Source: Octopus vulgaris (lineage: Eukaryota). Taken from it: a stretch of DNA of 64,000 nucleotides. Positions within the stretch are counted from its first letter, which is position 1; each line of letters starts with the position of its first letter. Below the pieces are notes generated by a model. That model was not told where the DNA came from, did no database searches, and was given only the letters and a program-made list of their open reading frames with translations. Positions 3,170 through 62,490 of this stretch are shown piece after piece. The position numbers were made by a program, and so were the translations under genes. The stretch spans positions 60,884,001 through 60,948,000 of the forward strand of contig OX597815.1 in NCBI GenBank assembly GCA_951406725.2, in the 5' to 3' direction.

Positions 3170-3185
3170 ATATATATATATATAC

Positions 3186-3483
3186 TTTATAATTAGGGTT
3201 CAGCAGAGATTTGCTTCACCACGTACCGAAGTTTAGAAATAGCAGTCAAAAAATCTTAGCTATTCTTTCTACTTTAAAAGGGGCTCCCAGAAAAACCAAA
3301 GTTCTTGAAAACAATCCACGCAGGCAAAAGGGAAAAATAACGAAAATCAATCGGTATTAGGTTATCCACGTACGCGCGTTTCGGAATTAGATCGGTATAA
3401 AGAATAAATAGCTATACCTTACCCGATCATTTTCGGCTCATCAGCGTAGGATTCCAGATAACAAACTACTGTTTCTCTCTGTA

Positions 3484-4648: not shown

Positions 4649-6030
4649 TGAGAAAGTTGGTGTGTGAAAGCACGTTGTTGAATATATAAAAAATAGTAAA
4701 AATGGAAAAAACTACAGAAGACTTGTTTTAAAAGGTTAAAAAATATATATTTGAGTCATTATGTCAGAAGAATGTTATAAATTTTTTTTCATACAGTGAC
4801 ATAGTTTTTGAAGAAATTACCGGTTTCGTGTTAACTTTTCAAATTTCTCAAAACATTGTGTTATGATTTCGTTAAGAAGTGTAAAGGAGAGTTCCAGGTA
4901 AGGGGAGGTAATAAGTGATTTCTTCCGGTGTAAGGGAGATAATCGCTTTATATTTCTTGCCTTTTTTATTTTTACTTAATGGGGTGAATTTCTCTGTATA
5001 AGAATGTTAGAGTGGTTAAGTTTGGGCTTATATTTTTCCATGAAGAATGTTTCCTTGTTTAGTCTAATTTGTGTTGGTGTTCCAATAGCACATTGATAAA
5101 ATGGAAAGATTAAAAATTTTGGTAGTAGTTGCTTTGCGCATTTCTCAATATGCTCACTAAAGGGTATCATTCTGTATTCTGGGAATGCAATCTGTTGTCG
5201 ATGCAGTGTGCATCTACGTCTGAGTGATAGTCCCGTGGACCCACGTAGTTTTGGTGGCAGCCCGAGCATCTTATGACATAAATTATGTTTTCAGAGGCAC
5301 AAGTAAAATTAAATTTGATCTTGAATTTTTGTCCCTCTTTGAAGAGGAATTCTGATCCTTCTATAAGGTTTGGGCATGTTGCACAGTTTGGTCTACCACA
5401 TTTTTTTACTTTTGCATCCGTAATTTCAGAAAGCAATTTTGCCTTTGTGAGAATCTTTTTAAGTGGTTTAGGTTGTAGCTTTTAATGATTTTATGTATGT
5501 TTAGAATTTCCTTTAATTTGGGGTCCTTATGAAGTATTGGTAAATTCTGGGTGATGATGGTGAAGGCTTCTTTGTTTCTGGGGTTGTATGTGGATATGTA
5601 AGGCAGTATTTTCGGGGAAGGTGTGTTGTTGTGTTGAACTTTTCTCAAAGTTTCTATGTCGATTTCTGTTGCACGTCTGATCCCATCCTCTATGAGTTGA
5701 GCTGGGTAGTGTCTGTCAATTAGGGTGTTTTTGAGTTCTTGTAGTCTAAAGTTCCTGGTATTTTGTTCTGACACTATTGTGCATATCCTTCTTGCAAGGT
5801 TGAAAGGGATGTTTGTTTTAGTGTTTCTTGGGTGGCATGAATCAAAAAGTAGGTATTGTTTGGCGTCTGTGGCTTTGTAAAAAATATCTGTTTCTATTTT
5901 AAGGTTAATTTTTTTTAAAATTAGTATATCTAAGAATGGGAGCTGCCTTTTGTTGTATTCCATTGTGAACTGTATATTTAGGTTGATGCTGTTCAATAGG
6001 TTTTTGAATTTTAGGAGTTTATCTGTGTTT
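4647..6030 (-). mobile_element. Penelope-like element (Neptune-like) 3' part: RT thumb plus GIY-YIG endonuclease, frameshifted
   Basis: FTME...LPFLDI...YKATD..QYL.FDSCHP, CGRPNCATC linker, FTCASENIIYVIRCSGC..YVG; degenerate HHR (GAAACCGGUA) near 4815-4880. Confidence 0.9.
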
Positions 6031-7058: not shown

Positions 7059-7093
<35 letters not shown>

Positions 7094-7142
7094 GTAGAAA
7101 TATGTCACGAAAAGAAAATATAAAATACACGTGGAAATGTAA

Positions 7143-8135
7143 AGGTAAAATATGAAAAATCAACGAAGATGCATATGGCAGAGAGAAAAAGGCTATTTAT
7201 AACAGGTAGTGTCAAATATATACATTTAGATTGACTGAGGTAGTAATACGAGTCATAAAGGTCATTATTATGAGATGATTATAAGATGATAATAATAATA
7301 AAGTAAGAGAACAAAACGAAACAATTGGTTTACGCGAAGGCCATTCATCGTTTAAACAGCACCGGTTAATATACGGTGTCAGGTCTAATAGTTCCTGGGA
7401 AAAAAGATTATTTGTAAGGGAGGTAAGTAGTTCTGGATTATTTGTAAGGGAGGTAAGTAGTTCTGTGATTAGAGATGTGGGTGATGTAGGTAGTGTATAG
7501 GGTTTAGTGGTTTAAATTGAAGAGTTAGTGGTGTTCTGTATTGAGTTGTGTGTTCATATTTAGTTGGGGGAGAAATTTGTTGATGAAAAATGCCTCTTTA
7601 TTCAACCTTTGTTGCATTGTGGTGTTCTGTGAGCATTGGTAAAAGGGAAATATTGGGAAATTTGGCATTAAGATTCCCGGCACGTCTTTCTATGTGTTCA
7701 CTCACCTTTAACTGTCTGTATTGTGGGTGACGGATTTGCTCTTTTTGAATGGTGATTCTTTGACGGAGCAAAATTCCTGTTTGTCCAATATAGAGTTTAC
7801 CACATCCTAAGCATGTCATGACATAGATTACATTTGCTGAGGCGCAGGTGAAATTTGATTTGATCTTAAATATTTCTCCTTGTTTGAATTAGAATTCTGA
7901 ACCCTCCAGAAGGTGGGGACATGTTCCACAGTTAGAACGACTACATTTTGTCACTTTTGGCTCAGTAGTTAGTAGGTAAAGTCTAGCGCTGGTTAATATT
8001 CTTTTCAGTGACTTCGGTTGCTTTTTGCTTTTTATAATTTTGTATGAGCTTAAAATTTCGTTCATTGTCACTACCTGTCATAAATAGCCTTTTTCGCTCT
8101 GCAATATGCATTTTCGTTGATTTTTCATATTTTAC

Positions 8136-8138
<3 letters not shown>
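7143..8138 (-). mobile_element. 5'-truncated Neptune-like PLE with inverted pLTR ends
   Basis: CSRSNCGTC...MTCLGCGKLYIGQTG (GIY-YIG). 7143-7210 is the reverse complement of 8069-8138. Same family as 26360-27230; flanked by (TA)n. Confidence 0.9.
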
Positions 8139-8189
<51 letters not shown>

Positions 8190-8399
8190 GTGTGTGTGTG
8201 TGTGCATCGAAAGATCTTTGACGAACAAAAGCAAAACAATTGGATATTTAATAAATGTGTGGAACTGAACCAGTGTCTGTTAATTATATTAGCATAATGG
8301 CTCTCCCTTGACACAACAAAATTTGTTTCAACATACGAATTTGCATAAAAATCTTGCAAACCGGATACAAAATTTATATAGCTTTTACATTTTCACCTT

Positions 8400-9545
8400 T
8401 TACCGGTTGCAGCCACAGGCTGAGGTGATGTTGGAGAACCGGTTTTTAGTGTGTTTGGATTTCTTTTCTGCACTGTTTCTGGTGAAGTTGCGAAATAGAC
8501 GGAACGATCTTCTTTGTACCTCCTGCCGCCATGTGGGTTCATCAGGCGTATCAAATAAAAATGTGTCCAAATGCTCTTTGAAGACCTCCATATGCACCTC
8601 GTAAATATTTGAGGTTGTTTGGCAGAATATTGAATAGTTGTGGACCATTGAAACTCTAGCTGCTATAGTACCGATTCCTTATTCTAGATGGAGAAGACGC
8701 GAGTTTTGGTACTATGCAGTGCCGTCCAGTTCAGTGGTCGGTATACCTTTCAGTTGTAAAATTGAGAGACAGACCTCCCAGAATCCTCGATGTGTATATC
8801 ATTGCATATTTTTTACGTCTTCTCTCCAGGGAGTAGAGCTTCAGTTACTTTAGCCTCTCCCAGTAGCTCATCTGTTTCATTGAGTCATTCTTCTCTGTGT
8901 AGTGGGGCTGGATTGCCTCAAGTTCCGCCACCAATTTGATGATCTGCGGTGACCACAACTGGGAATAGTAATGCAGATGACTGAAAACTAATATTCTCCA
9001 TGAAAGTAGCATGGTATTCTTTTTCCTGCTTCTGAATGATCTCAGATCCATCTTGCTACTCAACTGTACAGAGTTGCCATCTTGGTAGCATACACATGAA
9101 GGTTGCACCATTACTCCAGTGGAGTCCCAGACCACGTACCGAATCTTACTCTGGGATGGAACTACATCCATAGTCCTGTGCATTTCGATTGCAGTCTCTG
9201 TCTGTGGGCCGATAATAGAGTGCTGGAAGCTTCTCAGCATTGAACAGCATGTTATTTTCATCAGCTTATTTGTATATTGTATCCTGTTGTTTCTGTCATT
9301 GGGTACCTTGACTGCCTGTCATACTTTTGTATCCTCAGCATAACTGATGAGAGTTGCTGACTGTATGGCTGATGGTATATCTGAGAAAACACCACAAACA
9401 GTAGTTGTCCCAGCACAGTTCCTTGAGGAAGTCCACTTCGAATTGAAGTCTCCCAAGAGAGTGCACCATTAGCTGCAACTGTGTAACTTCTACCTTTTAC
9501 AAAAATCATTAAGCTACTCTCCTAATTATCCACAGGTGCCTTGCT
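8400..9545 (-). mobile_element. degraded CR1-group LINE RT fragment
   Basis: SGLPQGTVLGQLLF, HLHYYSQLWSP, MSYWERLK, FKEHLDTFLFDTPDEPT. Confidence 0.85.
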
Positions 9546-17511: not shown

Positions 17512-19004
17512 ATAAAACGGTAAGATAACAAATGTGAGCATGGGTTCATATGATGGGGCAGGCATCTGTGATCTAATTGGACTTTTTCTCCTAGATACCT
17601 TAGGTAAGACATTCCCTAATGTACATTTCGCCATCTACAAAGATGATGCCCTCGCCTTAACAGCTAATACAAATGGACCAGCACAAGATCGTTTTAGGAA
17701 AGATATTATCCAGTTAATGAAACACTTTGGACTTAGTATAACTATAGATACTAACCTGACGGTTGTCAATTTCTTAGACGTTTCCTTAGATCTTAATAAG
17801 AATATTTATAAGCCTTATAGGAAGCCCAATGATAGACTAAGTTATATTAATGTAGGTTCATGCCATCCCCCTATAGTATTCAAAAATTTAGTTTAAAATA
17901 TTAGTAAGAGGATTTCTAGCCTCTCATCTAATGAGGACATCTTCAATAGCGTTGCCCCAGTTTATAATAAGGCTTTAAAAGATAGTGGTTTTAGCGAAAA
18001 AATAAAATATACACCTATCACTAGCCCAACAGTAAGGAAAAGGAATAATAGAAATAGTTAGGTCATCTGGTTTACGCCCCCTTACTCACCCGAGGTGGCC
18101 TTCAATATAGGTAAATATTTCCTAGCACTGATAGATAGACATTTTCCAGTTAACCATACTTATAGGAAACTCTTCAATAGACACAATTTAAAAATTAGTT
18201 TTAGTTCAACTACCAATTGTAAAAACATAATCAAACATAACATACAAAAAACACAAGAAGAAAACAGCTGTTCATGCAGGAATAAAGAATTGTGCCCGCT
18301 AAATGGAGCTTGCATGTCCAAGACCATCATATATGAAGCTACCGTAAACTCTATAACTACTAAAGACACCGTTTCGACGAAGAAATACGTGGGCCTTACA
18401 GAGGGTAATTTCAATGCCAGGTTCAATAACCACACTTTGAGCTTTAGGCACTGGAACAAAAGAAAAGCGACACAATTATCTAATCATATTTGGTCTTTAA
18501 GAGATAAAGGTGTCGAATATAACATACAATGGAAGATTTTGGCCAGATGTAAGCCCTATACTAACGGCAGCGGAAGGTGCGGTCTATGCGACATGGAGAG
18601 ATGGCTTATCTGGAAAAGCAGCTTAGACCCTACTACATGTCTAAATACAAGGACAGAGCTTTTCGGATCATGCCCACATGTGACTAAATTTCTGTTACGT
18701 TTTTGGTCCCCTAAAGAAAACAGATAGAACATGCTTTCTGTGTTATGTCCCAAGAAGAATTTATATATTTTTATATATTTTTATATATTTTTTATGTATT
18801 TTTATATAATTTTTATGACGAAAAATGCGAGCGATGTATAAGTAGGCAGGCAAGCAGAGTTATAACAGAGTAATTTCCCTTTATTTAACGGTATTTTTTC
18901 ATAACGTTTTCAAATAGCCAGATAACCGAAGAGATGGTGTTGTGGATTTCCACTTCGGCATCTGAAACTCAGAGTTTTATCTTGACTACCGAGTAATGTA
19001 ACAT

Positions 19005-19008
<4 letters not shown>
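17509..19008 (+). mobile_element. Hydra-clade Penelope-like element, 5'-truncated, with premature stops, in (TA)n
   Basis: VSMGSYDGA...IYKDDAL (RT), CSCx5Cx5C linker, IIY...YVGLTE GIY-YIG, C-terminal CxxCxxE and CPH. 3' pLTR carries an HHR; a short inverted pLTR tip sits at 17509-17532. Confidence 0.9.
18921..18981 (+). ncRNA. pLTR hammerhead ribozyme (U4C variant)
   Basis: gauaa-CCGAAGA-gaug...cauc-u-GAAA-CUCAGAG-UU-uuauc. Confidence 0.7.
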
Positions 19009-19097
<89 letters not shown>

Positions 19098-20507: not shown

Positions 20508-21013
20508 TGTATATATATATAAGCTGTATATATATAGACATATACATACATATATGTATAAATACATTACGTACACACACACACATATACACATATATAT
20601 ATATAACTGAAAAAATTGGAGTCAACAAGAAGAGGTGCATTGGACATTAATCTTTAATCTCTACAATTGTTTCCTCGCAGCGTAGTTCTTCGGGAGTGCT
20701 GGTAGTTGATTATGCAACTGTTTCTCTGCATTATGAGTTGTGTTTTCTCAGGCGATATGTTCACATTGCTAGAAATAAGAGTTAAAACAACACATGGCCA
20801 CAAGAAGCACCTTATCTTAATGACTGACAAGGGAGACAAGCTCCCTCGGTTCCCAGAAATAGCCAGATCACAGTGATTTCGTTTTTATATTAATGCACTT
20901 CACTGACTCTCACCTAGCGCCTTGGGTTAAACTCAACTCGCCTTGTCAGTTTTCGTCGAAATCATACGCTGATTTCTTAAACGGTAAAGTGAAAATTATA
21001 AATAACAAGGCTA

Positions 21014-21265: not shown

Positions 21266-21543
21266 TGTGTGTGTGTGAGAGAGAGAGAGAGAGAATTAAT
21301 ATGTGCGTATATATGACTGTCAATACGAATATGTGTTATATATATATATATATATTATATAAAAGGGCTTAGTAAAATAAATTACTTTGCCGCATACTGA
21401 ACTCATTAGAAATAGCAGCTAAAAAACTTTTTTAAAGCTATTTCTAATACTTAAAGAAAATCTCTCTCGTATAGTGTTTGCTTAACTCAACTCACAAAAG
21501 TTTGGGGGTAAGGACATCAAAAAATCAAATGCAAAGGTTATTT

Positions 21544-21594
21544 GAGAACGTACGTTTCAAGATTAGTCAAAACGACACTTCTATCATCAGCTCA
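21544..21594 (-). ncRNA. type I hammerhead ribozyme (left arm)
   Basis: ugag-CUGAUGA-uaga...ucuu-GAAA-CGUACG-UU-cuca. Confidence 0.8.
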
Positions 21595-22438
21595 GAAACT
21601 CCTTGGTTTGGATTTGAAAACACTGAATGTAAGAACATACCCTTTCGGCTTCTCATCGCTTTCGAAGATCTGTTCGTAACTAACAGTGCCAACAAACTCA
21701 AATAAGCAAGCGAAGAATTTCTGTTCTCCCCTTTCCACCAGCGTGGGTTAAAATCATCAAACACTATGCTTATTTCGGTAAAATCCGAAGCATTAATTAG
21801 AGGGAGATTAATTATAATTTCAACAATTGAGGGTAAAATTAATTAATTATTCATCAATTTCACCAAGTGTTCAGTATGCAAAGGGACCATTTAAGGCGAA
21901 TTCAAATTATTACATTATATAAAAGGGCTTAGTAAAATAAATTACTTTGCCGCATACTGAACTCATTAGAAATAGCAGCTAAAAAACTTTTTTAAAGCTA
22001 TTTCTAATACTTAAAGAAAATCTCTCTCGTATAGTGTTTGCTTAACTCAACTCACTGCTATTTCTAATGAGTTCAGTATGCGGCAAAGTAATTTATTTTA
22101 CTAAGCCCTTTTATATAATGTAATAATTTGAATTCGCCTTAAATGGTCCCTTTGCATACTGAACACTTGGTGAAATTGATGAATAATTAATTAATTTTAC
22201 CCTCAATTGTTGAAATTATAATTAATCTCCCTCTAATTAATGCTTCGGATTTTACCGAAATACGCATAGTGTTTGATGATTTTAACCCACGCTGGTGGAA
22301 AGGGGAGAACAGAAATTCTTCGCTTGCTTATTTGAGTTTGTTGGCACTGTTAGTTACGAACAGATCTTCGAAAGCGATGAGAAGCCGAAAGGGTATGTTC
22401 TTACTTTCAGTGTTTTCAAATCCAAACCAAGGAGTTTC

Positions 22439-22490
22439 TGAGCTGATGATAGAAGTGTCGTTTTGACTAATCTTGAAACGTACGTTCTCA
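22439..22490 (+). ncRNA. type I hammerhead ribozyme (right arm)
   Basis: ugag-CUGAUGA-uaga...ucuu-GAAA-CGUACG-UU-cuca. Confidence 0.8.
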
Positions 22491-22776
22491 AATAACCTTT
22501 GCATTTGATTTTTTGATGTCCTTACCCCCAAACTTTTGTGAGTTGAGTTAAGCAAACACTATACGAGAGAGATTTTCTTTAAGTATTAGAAATAGCTTTA
22601 AAAAAGTTTTTTAGCTGCTATTTCTAATGAGTTCAGTATGCGGCAAAGTAATTTATTTTACTAAGCCCTTTTATATAATGTAATAATTTGAATTCGCCTT
22701 AAATGGTCCCTTTGCATACTGAACACTTGGTGAAATTGATGAATAATTAATTAATTTTACCCTCAATTGTTGAAAT

Positions 22777-22811
<35 letters not shown>

Positions 22812-26306: not shown

Positions 26307-26364
26307 ATATATATATATATATATATAAATCACATAAATTTCACATAAAAATCACATAAAAACA

Positions 26365-27235
26365 CATAAAAATCAACATACCCTTTAACCTAGCAAAAAG
26401 AATCTGCACCACAGTTTCCGATACATACTCTCGAGAACATAGAGTCCTTGAACGTAGATCTACACTAACTAAAAGACATTACCCAATCTCATTAGTAAAT
26501 GAAGGCATCAAAAGAGCTAAGGAAATAGATATACAAAGGTTAAGGAAAACTAGCCGAAATGCTAAACAAGACTTTAAAATACTCCCGTACATTTCCACAC
26601 ACAACCCCAGAAACAACGAAGCCTTCAACATCATCACACAAAACCTTCCCATCCTCACAGCAGACAGAACAATGAACGAAAATTTAAGCTCATATAAAAT
26701 TATAAAAAGTAAAAAGCAAACGAAGTCACTGAAAATAATATTAACCAGCGCTAGACTGTATCCACCGACAACAGAGCCAAAAGTGACAAAATGTAGTCGT
26801 TCTAACTGCGGAACATGCCCCACCTTCTGGGGGGTTCAGAATTCCAATTCAAACAAGGAGAAATATTTAAGATCAAATCAAATTTCACCTGCGCCTCAGT
26901 AAATGTATGTAATCTATGTCATGCATAATCTATGACATGCTTAGGATATGGTAAACTCTATTTTGGACAAACAGGAATTTCGCTCCGTCAAAGAATCACC
27001 ATTCACAAAGAACAAATCCGTCACCCACAATACAGACAGTTAAAGGTGAGTGCACACATAGAAAGATGTGCCAGGAATCTTAATCCCAATTTCCAAATAT
27101 TTCCCTTTTACCAATGTTCACAGAACACCACATTGCAACAAAGGTTGAATAAAGAGGCATTTTTCATCAACAAATTTCTCCCCCAACTAAACATGGACAC
27201 ACAACTCAATACAGAACATCACTAACTCATTATAT
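26365..27235 (+). mobile_element. Neptune-like PLE fragment (thumb plus GIY-YIG)
   Basis: INIPFNLAKRICT...ILPYISTHNP...CSRSNCGTC...YFGQTG..LRQRI..H; same family as 7143-8138. Confidence 0.9.
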
Positions 27236-27249
27236 TTTAACCGCGAGAA

Positions 27250-28012
27250 CCGAGGCAGTATGACCGAGAGAAATGAATTATAATATCAACAATTGAGGGT
27301 AAAATTAATTAATTAATCAATTTCACCAAGTGTTCAGTATGTAAAAGGACCATTTAAGGCGAATTCAAAATATTACATTATATAATTAGGGCTTAGTAAA
27401 ATAAATTACTTTGCCACATACTGAACTTAGTAGAAATAGCAGCTAAAAAAAATTTTTTTTTAGCCATTTCTACTACTTAAAGAAAATTTCTCTCAGATAA
27501 TGTTTACTCCAGACAGCTCACGAAGGTTTGGAGGTAAATACAGAAAAATATCACAAGTACATAGATCGTTTGAGTACGTCAACGTTTCAAGATTTGCCAA
27601 ATATAATGTTTGCTAGAGAGACCACGTGGGTGGAAAGGGAGTGCAGAAATTTACGCCTGCGCATTTTGAATTTGTTGACACTGTTAGTTGGAGTGGTTCA
27701 TCTGAAGCGACAAGTTCGCTGATAGGTAAAGTTCCTTCTTTTTAGTGTTTCCAAATCCAAATTAAGAAATTTTGAGCTGACGAAAGAAATGCTGATTTTA
27801 TTTGGCTAATCTTGAAACGTTGACGTACTCAAACGATCTATGTACTTGTGATATTTTTCTGTATTTACCTCCAAACATTCGTGAGCTGTCTGGAGTAAAC
27901 ATTATCTGAGAGAAATTTTCTTTAAGTAGTAGAAATGGCTAAAAAAAATTTTTTTGGGCTGCTATTTCTACTAAGTTCAGTATGTGGCAAAGTAATTTAT
28001 TTTACTAAGCCC

Positions 28013-28020
<8 letters not shown>
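27250..28020. mobile_element. second, diverged copy of the 560-bp HHR family, also a foldback
   Basis: 27380-27602 is the reverse complement of 27798-28020; segments align by eye with 21355-22779; ends in (TA)n. Confidence 0.88.
27771..27833 (+). ncRNA. type I hammerhead ribozyme, intact
   Basis: uuugag-CUGACGA-aaga...ucuu-GAAA-CGU ug ACG-UA-cucaaa; predicted cleavage after 27827. Confidence 0.92.
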
Positions 28021-28094
<74 letters not shown>

Positions 28095-28315
28095 TCTCTC
28101 TCTCTCTCTCTCCATATATATATTTTTGAAAAAATATATAATTGCAAAAATTGGAGTCAAGAAGAAGGGGTGCTGTTGGAAATTTATTCTTTAATCATTA
28201 CAATTGTTTCCACGCAACGTAGTTCTCCTGGTGGGCAGGTACTTGATTATGCAACTGTTTTCCTGTATTATGCGATCTAGTTGAGATATGGAAAAGAATC
28301 GCAATTCAAAAGAAA

Positions 28316-36722: not shown

Positions 36723-36727
<5 letters not shown>

Positions 36728-38190
36728 AAATAAGCAACAAGGATATCCAGAGGTAATGCAGTACGATCGTTTTCATGCGACTCCATTTGATTGAACAATG
36801 CAAGTATTACATCAGTTTTAAAATGTAGAGCAATCTTCAGCTGCATAAAAGTATAGAATTTAGTTAAATTTAAAAGATTCAACGTAAAGTATAATAGCCA
36901 TCTCAATATGGCTAACCACTGTAGCTTTTAGCCCCAGGAGATCATCGTCTCCAGCTGGCTTTAGGCACACTATCTGTGCTCTTATGGTATTTGCAAAGGG
37001 AGGTCATCCCTCTCTCGTCAGCCTAAAGTGATACGCACGGACCGCAGTTTCGAGGTATTTGCCTCTTGTCAACGCACGGTAATCACCGGTTTACGATGAA
37101 AAGGAAGACCTGTTTGCAAATACTTAAGTGTTTTTCTAGTAACTTCCGTCACTGATTTCGAAAAACTGTCTGCAAGCAATAATAAATCTCTGAACGAGAT
37201 GTAAACAGTAACCGCTCGACAACGTAAAGTATAATAGCCATCTCAATAAAAGATTCAGTTTTATAGTTATTCTATTAACCAAAATCACTACGAGGGTAAG
37301 TAGGTAGACAGAGAACAAGTTTCATCAGCAATATCATAGTAGTAACTGATATTTTTTTCCATGAAGACACTGCTTATCATTGATTTTACTTTGTTATTTA
37401 GATTTATTAGCATATAGAAAATATATGAAATTTTTAACATATTCCTTTAATTTAACTCATTAATACCAATAAATTACTATTTTCTAATTAACTATAAATT
37501 TATATTAAATTGGTATAGAAACTTTTATAAATTTGAAATTATTTCTATATTCTCCATCCCTATATTGTGTAAAATATTGAAATTATTCTGATTCTTTGAA
37601 AAACTCTCTAAAATGTACGTATTTATTTCAAATTACCATTGGGATTATGGCTGTCAAATAGTTAAGTATTATAAGTTTTTACTCTCCCTACCCCATCAGC
37701 TTTAGCCTGCTAATTTTGGCTGAAATATATTCATACTGGACCCAAATGGTTTCTACTTCAAAGGGATCTTGATTTATGGCTCTGCCACTTAAACAGTCTT
37801 TTTCTCTATTCATAAAAGATAAACTCTTGGTTTCCACTAGACCTGATAAACTAGTCTATAAACTTAAACCCCCTTCTCCAGTAGTAAATCTAAATAACAA
37901 AATAAAATCAATGATAAGCAGTGTCTTCATGGAAAAAAATATCAGTTACTATTATGATATTGCTAATGAAACTTATTCTCTGTCTACCTACTTACCCTCT
38001 TTGTGATTTTGGTTAATGGAATAACTATAAAAATGAATCTTTTAAATTTAACTAATTTCTATATTTTTATGCAGCTGAAGATTGCTCTACATTTTAAAAC
38101 TCATGTAATACTTGCATTGTTCAATTAAATGGAGTCGCATGAAAACGATCGTACTGCATTACCTCTGAATATTCATGTTGCTTATTTTGA
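36723..38190. mobile_element. foldback HHR element with a nested insertion
   Basis: 36723-36881 plus 37258-37405 is the reverse complement of about 37885-38190. HHRs at 36756-36846 (minus) and 38069-38159 (plus): augcag-CUGAAGA-uugc...gcau-GAAAA-CGAUCG-UA-cugcau. Confidence 0.88.
36882..37246 (-). mobile_element. 340-bp-period terminally redundant insert with degenerate HHR and 11-bp TSD
   Basis: TSD taaaagattca (36871-36881, 37247-37257); 29-bp direct repeat at 36880-36908 and 37220-37248; HHR at 37035-37077 (UUGACAA-gagg..ccuc-GAAA-CUGCG-GUC). Confidence 0.85.
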
Positions 38191-38290
38191 TTATAATCAC
38201 CCCATTTTGAATTATATGAATAATACCATACAAAATTCTGGTACTTTTAACTTAAGTACCATACTCAACTGAATCTAAACTTTTACTGAA

Positions 38291-46400: not shown

Positions 46401-46428
46401 GGTTATATATATATATATATATATATAT

Positions 46429-46965
46429 ATCGTGTACATTAGAACACATTAAGAGACTTCCAAATAGGAAAGCCTTGTGCTAGAAAGAGCAGTAGAAAAC
46501 TCAAACCGCTAATTATGGATAAATTCTCGAAAGGATTGAAAATTAATTTAGTTCCCAGACCATGGGACGCGGTTGTTTTGAAAAATTAGGATATACAGGC
46601 AACTAGTTTATATGGGAATCTAGTTGTGTGTATATTTGAAATCTAAAGGCTTCCTACTGATGAAAACTAGCCTCAGTAAATATTTTTTACTGGAATGAGT
46701 TAGAAACCATGGTCTGGGAACTAAATTAGATGGTAAACGTTTTTAATTTTCAATCGTTTCGAGAATTTATCCATAATTAGTGGTTTGAGTTTTCTACTGC
46801 TCTTTTTAACACAAGGCTTTCCTATTTGGAAGCCTCTTAATGTGTTCTAATGTACACGATATTTTTATGTGAATAATATATAGTCTGTTTACTATTTTTT
46901 GTGCTAGGCCACTGGTAATAATAATTCCTATAATTCTTATTACCCTAATATTATTTATTATGTTT
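46429..46965 (+). mobile_element. foldback HHR element in (TA)n
   Basis: 46429-46565 is the reverse complement of 46707-46861 (with a small deletion). Confidence 0.88.
46651..46720 (+). ncRNA. type I hammerhead ribozyme, intact core
   Basis: uuccua-CUGAUGA-a-aacu...aguu-a-GAAA-CCAUGG-UC-ugggaa; predicted cleavage after 46714. Confidence 0.88.
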
Positions 46966-53539: not shown

Positions 53540-54890
53540 TTAAGACGATCTGAAACAAAAATAAATGCTATTTCTTTCAGTTTAATATCAAAAGACTATT
53601 ACGCATCAATAAGAAAACCAATACTTATAATTATTTGAGCTTTGCAAAAATACTAAACACAATAACCGACACTGAAATAGAAATCTTTTCTTTTCCACAA
53701 CAGTGCTTTCTGGTTAAGAAAAGTTCTAAAGAACAATACGACGTTAGTATGGGATCAAAGGACTCAGCAGAGGTAAGCGACATCGTCGGCCTTTACATAT
53801 TAGCCAACTTACACAGCAAATTTCCTTTCGTCTCAGGTGGTCTCTATAGAGACGACGGTCTACTCCCAAGAAACTACAAACCACAGAAATTCCAGATAAA
53901 TTAAGGAAAGAACTACACCACCTCTTTAAAACCGTAGACATTATCTATTAGATGTGTTTCCACTAGAAACACATTTAAACCAATTACCTTTCTCAATATT
54001 ACTCGAGACTTAGAAGCCAGTATTTATAACCTTTACATTGGCAATTCAGCCATCCCAAAGTACAATTAAAAGCTTACACGTAACGTATCGCTAAGACTTT
54101 CTTTTTTATCTTCCAACGAAAACATATTAACTGAAATAATAACTCGATATAACGAAGCCCTGAGTAACAGTAAAAAAAGTACAATACACAATCAGCCACA
54201 AGAAAAAAACACCAAAAAATAGAAGGGTGATTATCCAATTCATTCCACCCTTCTATATACAAGTCTCCACATAGATAATCAAAATACTTTTTAAAATACT
54301 CCCAAATACTTCCACTTCAACCACAAGTATCACAAACTAATAAACAAAAACAACATAAAAATATCATACTCCACAACTAACAACTTCGAAAAACCTGTAT
54401 CCAATTACAACCACCTAAAACTTTCTAAAGGGGAAACCCAAAGCCATACATATCGCAGCAACAATTGCAATTTCAGAAAGTCCTCATCTTGCCCTCTAAA
54501 AGGAAATTGCTTTACATATAACATAATTCATTACGTAACTATAACCATGAACACTACACCGTCAAAATACCAACTTATGTAGAGTCTACATTAAGCCAGT
54601 TGAGTACACCATTCAACCAACGCACATATACCTTTCACAACTCAGTCAGGGCAAATGACACTTCATTATCCAAACAAAGATGGACACTAAAATAAAAGAA
54701 ATACACCATTTAGCATTAACTGGAAAATATTGGCACATGCACCACCATGTCAAAAAACCCTTGCCGACTTAGTATCAATCAAACTTATCACATTCTCATA
54801 TTTAGAAATCAAATACTGAACTGGAATTCGGAGTTAGTCTCTTCCTGCAAACACAAAACCTACAAACCACTAAGACATCTGAAATCAGTA
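53540..54890 (+). pseudogene. degraded Hydra-type PLE
   Basis: DVSMGSKDSAEVSDIVGLYIL...GLYRDDGL; later CNFRKSSSCPLKGNC, WKIL, CKH. Confidence 0.85.
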
Positions 54891-61899: not shown

Positions 61900-62490
61900 T
61901 TGTTACTGTATTATCAATTCACATACGGTTAGGATTGGTTTTTCCAACACAAAAAATCTCTTACAAATTATCTCTTCACATAATAACCAGTTACATATTA
62001 ATACATTTACTAATACTAACATTAATTTAACTAATACCATCCATCCCTCTAGAAATATTGATAACAAGGTTATTGTATCTGAAGTCAATTCCAACAGAAT
62101 CAAGTTTATGTCAAGTAACTCTAAAATTAAAAATTCTATATACCAGGGCAAAATAAATACTCATAATAAAGTACGATCTTACATTGGAAGCACGTCGTTA
62201 CAGTTATCTAAAATAATTTCTATCCATTACTCAACATTTAGGGATAAGAATAAACGTAATTTACAGGGCTCAGTATATTAATTTGGGATCTAAAAGACCA
62301 CAATGAACAATTTAATTTGGAATGGTTGATTCTCTCAATCTCGATACCGTATGACAAAGGCAGGGAATTCAGTCTTCTCTGTAATTCTAAACTATTTTTC
62401 ATTATTTTTTCTAAAAATCCCCTAGTAAACAAGGTTATAGAGCGTGTATACCGATGTAAACATTGGCAAAAGCACACCTTTAGTTCATAG
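61900..62490 (+). pseudogene. degraded Hydra-type PLE endonuclease region
   Basis: IYQGKI...SYIGSTS...IWDLKD.N.QFNLEWLIL...LC...RCKH. Confidence 0.75.

Follow-up and report, generated by a model that had tools for sequence, protein, structure and literature searches.

Judged from its sequence, the insertion at positions 21354-22779 of the window (the whole stretch of 64,000 nucleotides of Octopus vulgaris DNA that was analysed) is a young insertion of an abundant repeat family, whose 560-bp unit is non-coding and carries a hammerhead motif. We consider it likely that it was made in trans by the RT/GIY-YIG protein of a Penelope-like element (PLE), which would prime at both (TA)n ends from two fixed sites of the RNA, the template probably being a monomer circle. 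The family joins the animal non-LTR retrozymes, i.e. non-autonomous PLEs, in that it shows every retrozyme feature testable in DNA.

The case that PLEs mobilise animal retrozymes and use circles as templates has until now been built on co-occurrence and sequence similarity. In the octopus family, the young insertions number in the thousands, their two start sites can be mapped, the end rule is strict and array length can be measured; the element is valuable because its insertions record the mechanism. Given the end rule, the measurable arrays and the intact 781-aa PLEs of the same genome, the template, the start sites and the partner are directly testable; the counted end rule and the star-like arrays thus turn a proposed mechanism into a direct experiment. 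In addition, the family seeds the genome with many long inverted repeats, which could form dsRNA if transcribed.

Structure of the insertion and of its family

Phases of the unit are numbered from window position 22055, with the + strand as the hammerhead sense. The features of the insertion and of its relatives in the window are given in Table 1.

Table 1. Positions of the insertion, of its parts and of related elements in the window.
Feature	Position	Strand	Details
Left (TA)n target tract	21337..21355	.	
Arm 1, 702 bp, 1.25 units	21354..22055	-	phase 484 round to short end (65-68); outward, leftward
Arm 2, 725 bp, 1.29 units	22055..22779	+	phase 1 round to tailed end (165-166)
One full 560-bp unit	22055-22614		within arm 2
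Right (TA)n target tract	22780..22808	.	
Most conserved 3' region	22583..22779	+	three predicted stems
Type I hammerhead motif, arm 2	22439..22490	+	predicted cut after 22486 (phase 432)
Hammerhead motif, arm 1	21543..21594	-	mirror of 22439-22490
Subfamily B antisense arm, 0.67 unit	27233..27607	-	phase 403 to about 217
Subfamily B sense arm, 0.75 unit	27599..28022	+	phase 204 to short end, then (TA)n
B sense-arm hammerhead	27773-27831	+	GUA triplet
Subfamily D copy, distant	3185..3480	-	with hammerhead and short end, in (TA)n
Coding PLE, 5'-truncated, frameshifted	26360..27225	+	GIY-YIG match weak, below cut-off; landing site of the B copy

An earlier sequence-only reading had described an exact 560-bp monomer, and exact matching recovers this period as direct matches in both arms (21354-21495 with 21914-22055, and 22055-22219 with 22615-22779). 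The same reading was borne out in most of its anatomical detail: the arms comprise 1.25 and 1.29 head-to-tail units where about 1.25-1.3 had been estimated, they begin at different phases (484 and 1), they differ at exactly two positions (21628/22405 and 21770/22263) where about two had been counted, a (TA)n tract lies on both sides, and each unit has one hammerhead, at 22439-22490 on the + strand with its mirror at 21543-21594 on the - strand. The monomer was also rightly called non-coding, its longest ATG frames being of 29 aa in sense and 58 aa in antisense, and a Pfam search of the element gave no match above the cut-off. Both arms abut at 22055 and point outward into (TA)n, which masks any target-site duplication on both sides. 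The short end (about 22679-22682) and the tailed end (22779) each lie 3' of a predicted hairpin, in a UAUA(AU)-like stretch.

What had been called a near-perfect palindrome of 1.43 kb has only 29% identity when mirrored about the centre of the insertion; the different starting phases of the arms mean that no centred palindrome is formed. Its predicted fold has a stem of 628 bp with two mismatches, rather than the roughly 700 bp of double-stranded RNA first suggested, with a loop of 76 nt and an unpaired tail of ~100 nt. The "unit junction" that this insertion and its relative had been said to share is an arbitrary phase without biological meaning as a boundary.

The expectation of a larger dispersed, tandem-forming, non-coding hammerhead family holds. 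A 25-mer of the unit (phases 33-57) has 4,910 exact matches in the genome against 0 for a control, a figure that counts units, not insertions, and includes passenger copies inside a coding PLE; arrays reach 12 units and contain only units. With the 725-bp arm as query, 153 matches were found in the best 40 of 1,402 candidate places, and these top 40 loci have 97-100% identity and are spread over many chromosomes. Four subfamilies were distinguished: A (560 bp), B (565 bp), C (584 bp) and D (window 3185-3480). B is identical to A at 445/560 positions and closest to it at phases 1-160.

The diverged, folded-back relative reported at 27250-28020 is indeed both, and it spans 27233-28022 as a copy of the 565-bp subfamily B with arms of 0.67 and 0.75 units and a fold-back of 229 bp. 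That it keeps the hammerhead is true of its sense arm only, where the whole motif is present, and its left end is not in (TA)n but directly after the stop codon of an unrelated PLE. The antisense arm ends at an internal AT-rich site that is also the start of the sense arm. With its non-canonical left end where the sense arm begins, this copy is like a twin-primed inversion.

Copies of the older subfamilies C and D and further relatives of the unit were seen elsewhere (L178:582-1111, L217-L240, L267:292-525, L288:5935-6247 and 7060-7290); they have a longer helix II and the same ends, and several lie in (TA)n left by other PLEs. One B insertion occurs twice, 7.1 kb apart (L159:1023-1996 and 8134-9109), probably by local duplication. 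In the window, the copies of a short repeat at 20600-20735 and 28135-28272 are 84% identical, adjoin (TA)n and have, by eye, a decayed hammerhead-like end on the minus strand. More inverted-repeat pairs, at 31189-31440/36472-36723, 36724-38191 and 46414-46875, are possibly two-armed PLE-type insertions.

The hammerhead of subfamily A consists of helix I, a CUGAUGA core, helix II with a U.U first pair, GAAA, a palindromic helix III and a GUU triplet. Across the family, almost all of 284 segments have an intact core, and helix III is a palindrome whose length differs in each subfamily. Across subfamilies A-D, 9/14 helix pairs change on both sides, a level reached by 0/500 shuffles, and the signal falls away in slid controls; this alignment holds 10 related rows, of which one is mis-cut (no cells), and its structure was drawn by hand. 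Among 14 A/B rows alone, covariation was not above shuffles. No hammerhead family of Rfam was matched, either at gathering thresholds or at E<=5, and at minimum energy the A monomer gave no hammerhead fold (z of the region 0.1-0.5). When folded as dimers, B forms a double hammerhead and A does not. The 5' ends near the cut site number 11/68 arms in the youngest, top-40 set vs 3/81 in the position-ordered set; we do not claim this pile-up, whose window was chosen after looking and which is absent from the position-ordered set. Nor do we claim the slight excess of 5' ends seen at phases 55-90 (25/216). Self-cleavage of the unit RNA is thus put forward as a prediction only. As predicted circles, the units fold better than shuffles (z -5.5, -6.7 and -5.5, with 30 shuffles each).

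Ends of the insertions and coding PLEs

The ends were scored in 40 top hits, 25 loci found with a hammerhead 30-mer, 56 loci taken in order of position on one contig (C1) and 16 top B loci, using the largest insertion per locus; after four C1 loci (co-copies of one captured insertion) and one edge-cut locus had been dropped, 132 insertions were left. Two outward arms are present in 91/132 and one arm in 41/132, so that the two-armed form, first read as a special palindromic event, is the usual insertion product of the family. The outer ends of these 132 insertions fall at two fixed phases: a short site (phases 58-80) and a tailed site (phases 156-175), 98 nt apart. All 41 one-armed insertions end at one or the other. 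Both ends are canonical in 78/91 two-armed insertions, of which 75 pair a short with a tailed end, two have two short ends and one has two tailed ends; in the other 13/91, among them the B copy of the window, one end is non-canonical. Selection for a tailed end applies to the top-40 set and not to the C1 set, in which short and tailed ends are paired in 30/32 (p about 1e-7 vs independent ends). The two orientations had been taken for independent insertions, which does not agree with one short and one tailed end in 75/78. The inner junctions are of variable phase, and most overlap by 1-5 bases (by BLAST ends). In the 3' region, two pairs of the structure change on both sides among 10 rows. The flanks of the sampled copies are AT-rich or (TA)n, as a PLE target would be.

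Inverted pLTRs with a tail at one end have been described for PLEs (PMC8557442, PMC3846280, PMC8969392, in the excerpts used here), and the pairing of a short with a tailed end matches this published signature. A GIY-YIG search of the octopus genome moreover found a young PLE family with intact RT-endonuclease frames of 781 aa. The 16 copies analysed all end in (TA)n, 12 without a tail and 4 with a tail of 30-35 nt. An inverted piece is present in 2/16, and both have one end of each kind; since a young coding PLE shows such ends (2/2), the end rule of the unit is a PLE rule. This family is a candidate for the partner enzyme. Its copies (L271-L286, e.g. L274:2068-5771) also show an overlapping upstream frame of ~479 aa and terminal repeats of ~500 bp.

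No sequence link was found between the unit and 12 PLE 3' regions (the 781-aa family and 11 others), which are a sample of the PLE families of the genome. Local scores were 19-41, against 203 for an A-to-C control, and these PLEs were rejected as sequence partners; 2/72 comparisons beat all 40 shuffles, at low scores that we take as chance. That none of the 12 shares the sequence of the unit tells against the proposed mobilisation by a PLE, and a partner enzyme was not found in this way. The arms of the sampled loci hold units only, with no RT/GIY-YIG ORF between the repeats.

The truncated PLE next to the B copy has a linker CxxC motif which we take to be of the Neptune type. It was rejected as the parent of that copy, and the unit-like pieces at L267 and L288 were read as separate insertions. 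A further unit-like piece, at L248, was assessed from match positions alone. A second young coding PLE carries a two-armed subfamily-B passenger in its 3' region in 11/12 loci and accounts for 5/56 loci of the C1 sample. This PLE (L142:2338-2550, L133, L136, L160, L163, L291-L302) is abundant and has a microsatellite-rich 3' region. Other truncated PLEs of the window lie at 7060-8140 (-), 5015-5819 (-), 18062-19010 (+), 54304-54747 and 62263-62403, and the one at 7060-8140 appears to have its 3' end repeated in short, inverted form at about 8070-8140.

Template and mechanism of insertion

In the mechanism that we propose, the arrays would be transcribed and the unit RNA would cleave itself, probably as a dimer, after which the cleaved monomer would ligate to a circle. 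The PLE protein would bind the structured 3' region of this RNA and cleave (TA)n, and each of the two DNA ends would then serve as primer for reverse transcription at one of two fixed RNA sites, aided by the pairing of UAUA to TATA. Each cDNA would run a variable distance round the template, and the two 5'-truncated cDNAs would then be joined head to head. In a stronger form, a dimeric Penelope-type enzyme would prime both cut ends at the two fixed sites of one hammerhead circle of a long-lived lineage and copy it by rolling, making the array and the inverted arm in one step. We hold this form tentatively and lean slightly against it. If it is true, the one-of-each rule would prove from the genome that PLEs use retrozyme circles as templates, and it would offer a general explanation of inverted pLTRs and tails.

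Among the C1 arms made of a single segment, 44/80 pass the hammerhead cut site and 19/80 exceed one unit, which excludes a cleaved linear monomer as the template. The same 19/80 arms support the view that the template is longer than one unit. Variants were compared in 34 loci with at least 2.4 units each: 225 variants are confined to a single unit (singletons), 282 occur in every unit of both arms, and 32, many of them at indels, are found in some of the units. These mostly star-like arrays agree with a single uniform template for each insertion, of which a circle is the simplest form, and would be equally expected of a highly uniform linear multimer. In 23/47 loci the partner arm is the nearest of all sampled arms, in 12 it ties with another and in 12 it is farther. 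Of 85 distinct substitution singletons, 4 were seen again at a second locus, and no pair of loci has two in common. Since about 130 of thousands of loci were sampled, uniform donor arrays may be missed. Contigs of three runs, presumed to be RNA, match the unit; such contigs cannot show strand, ends or circles. Between a circle and an uncleaved linear multimer, we favour the circle with modest confidence.

A PLE-dependent route in which the template is an uncleaved linear multimeric transcript, arrays grow later by unequal crossover and hammerhead and circle lie off the insertion path appears rather unlikely. It would agree with the apparent weakness of the A-type hammerhead in folding, with the insertion by a PLE in vitro that had no need of hammerhead cleavage (PMC11167929, in part), and with the Xenopus data, where 1/9 dimers cleaved and where the excerpted preprint (10.64898/2026.07.22.740005) favours local amplification by unequal crossover. 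It would also agree with the period-2 shared variants of L035 and L041, so that some arrays are also shaped by block duplication following insertion or by a dimeric template. (In L035, L041 and L064, variants recur with a period of two or three units.) However, the subset-shared variants are few beside the other two classes (32 vs 282 and 225), no run of private variants is common to any two arrays, and the pairing of the hammerhead is kept across four subfamilies. Moreover, both arms exceed one unit in 18/72 two-segment insertions, with lengths that are fractions of units and with fixed outer ends. That the inverted arm stems from one cDNA which primed itself (fold-back) or switched template is less probable still. 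For rotifer PLEs whose junctions are palindromic, self-priming has been put forward (PMC3846280, as excerpted), and 13/72 inner junctions of the octopus family are near-symmetric, above the 5 expected under uniform phases; but 59/72 join unlike phases, this locus (484 vs 1) included, and fold-back alone does not predict that the second arm has the other fixed end in 75/78.

We give very little credence to the reading in which a coding PLE has the unit merely as its pLTR and the copies are truncated ends of that PLE, even though ends, targets and hammerhead are all PLE-like, several copies adjoin PLE ends and one directly follows a PLE stop codon. In other copies of that PLE (26360..27225), the unit follows the ORF in 0/19 and a different 3' end is present in 18, arms of up to 12 units hold nothing else, and the copies near other PLEs are separate insertions beyond the (TA)n of those elements. 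Among the scored copies, none forms the terminal repeat of a coding PLE. That the inverted structure is an artefact of assembly or of long-read fold-back is scarcely credible. The inner junction at 22055 is not bridged by any contig of the short-read run X15, yet the contigs of this run hold eight other antisense-to-sense joints, at other phases, the arms are offset rather than mirrored and carry two differences, and the same end rule applies at 91 loci, also in old copies with diverged arms. In the same run, which may not be independent of the assembly, (TA)n stands behind phase 166 in 14 contigs.

Relation to known systems

In LINE-1 twin priming, the 5' part of an insertion is inverted because two primers are used; the position of the second priming site varies, and the arms are free of overlap in the RNA. 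The contiguous layout of the B copy at 27233-28022 is of this kind. Unlike in twin priming, the unit has a second site that is mostly fixed, and its arms overlap over whole units.

The family resembles the animal non-LTR retrozymes in its tandem, low-GC, non-coding units with one type I hammerhead each, in its arrays and dispersed copies, in its strongly self-paired predicted circle and in its coexistence with PLEs. For animal retrozymes, Cervera & de la Pena 2020 (PMC7229834) demonstrated circles, proposed PLEs as candidates and gave a size of 150-450 bp; the preprint of Li, Clavereau & Pollet (10.64898/2026.07.22.740005) argued that they are non-autonomous PLE derivatives of 51-972 bp and reported sequence links to pLTRs. 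The octopus unit of 560-585 bp is above the first range and within the second. A U.U first pair in helix II is also found in a cleaving axolotl family (PMC7229834), and hammerheads that act as dimers have been described (PMC4209133). In contrast to animal retrozymes with demonstrated circles and cleavage, the octopus family is known from DNA alone, and the link to pLTRs drawn in the preprint has no counterpart between the unit and the 12 PLE 3' regions. Two-armed insertions with two fixed ends are not described for animal retrozymes in the excerpts of either source. No cephalopod retrozyme family was found in the literature searched, and the family may already be catalogued in Repbase, Dfam or preprint supplements. 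The statements on published systems in this section apply to the excerpts of the sources cited.

Like endonuclease-bearing PLEs (PMC8557442, PMC3846280), the family has an inverted 5'-truncated arm beside a direct arm, a tail at one end, (TA)n targeting and partial tandems. It differs from them in that the unit is without an ORF, the tail is of 98 nt against the published 30-40 and both arms can be multi-unit. The one-of-each rule, which is given in words only in the excerpts of these papers, is counted here (75/78). With AT-rich DNA, the purified PLE protein of Anolis Poseidon, which is predicted to form a dimer, cuts and extends both strands, and it has two internal start sites on the RNA (PMC11167929). 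In the octopus family, too, two internal starts would define the tail and the target is AT-rich, and we propose that both strands are cut and extended, perhaps by a dimer. Poseidon is a coding element with a linear RNA, whose starts lie in an AC-rich stem-loop within the ORF, whereas those of the non-coding octopus unit lie in UA-rich stretches.
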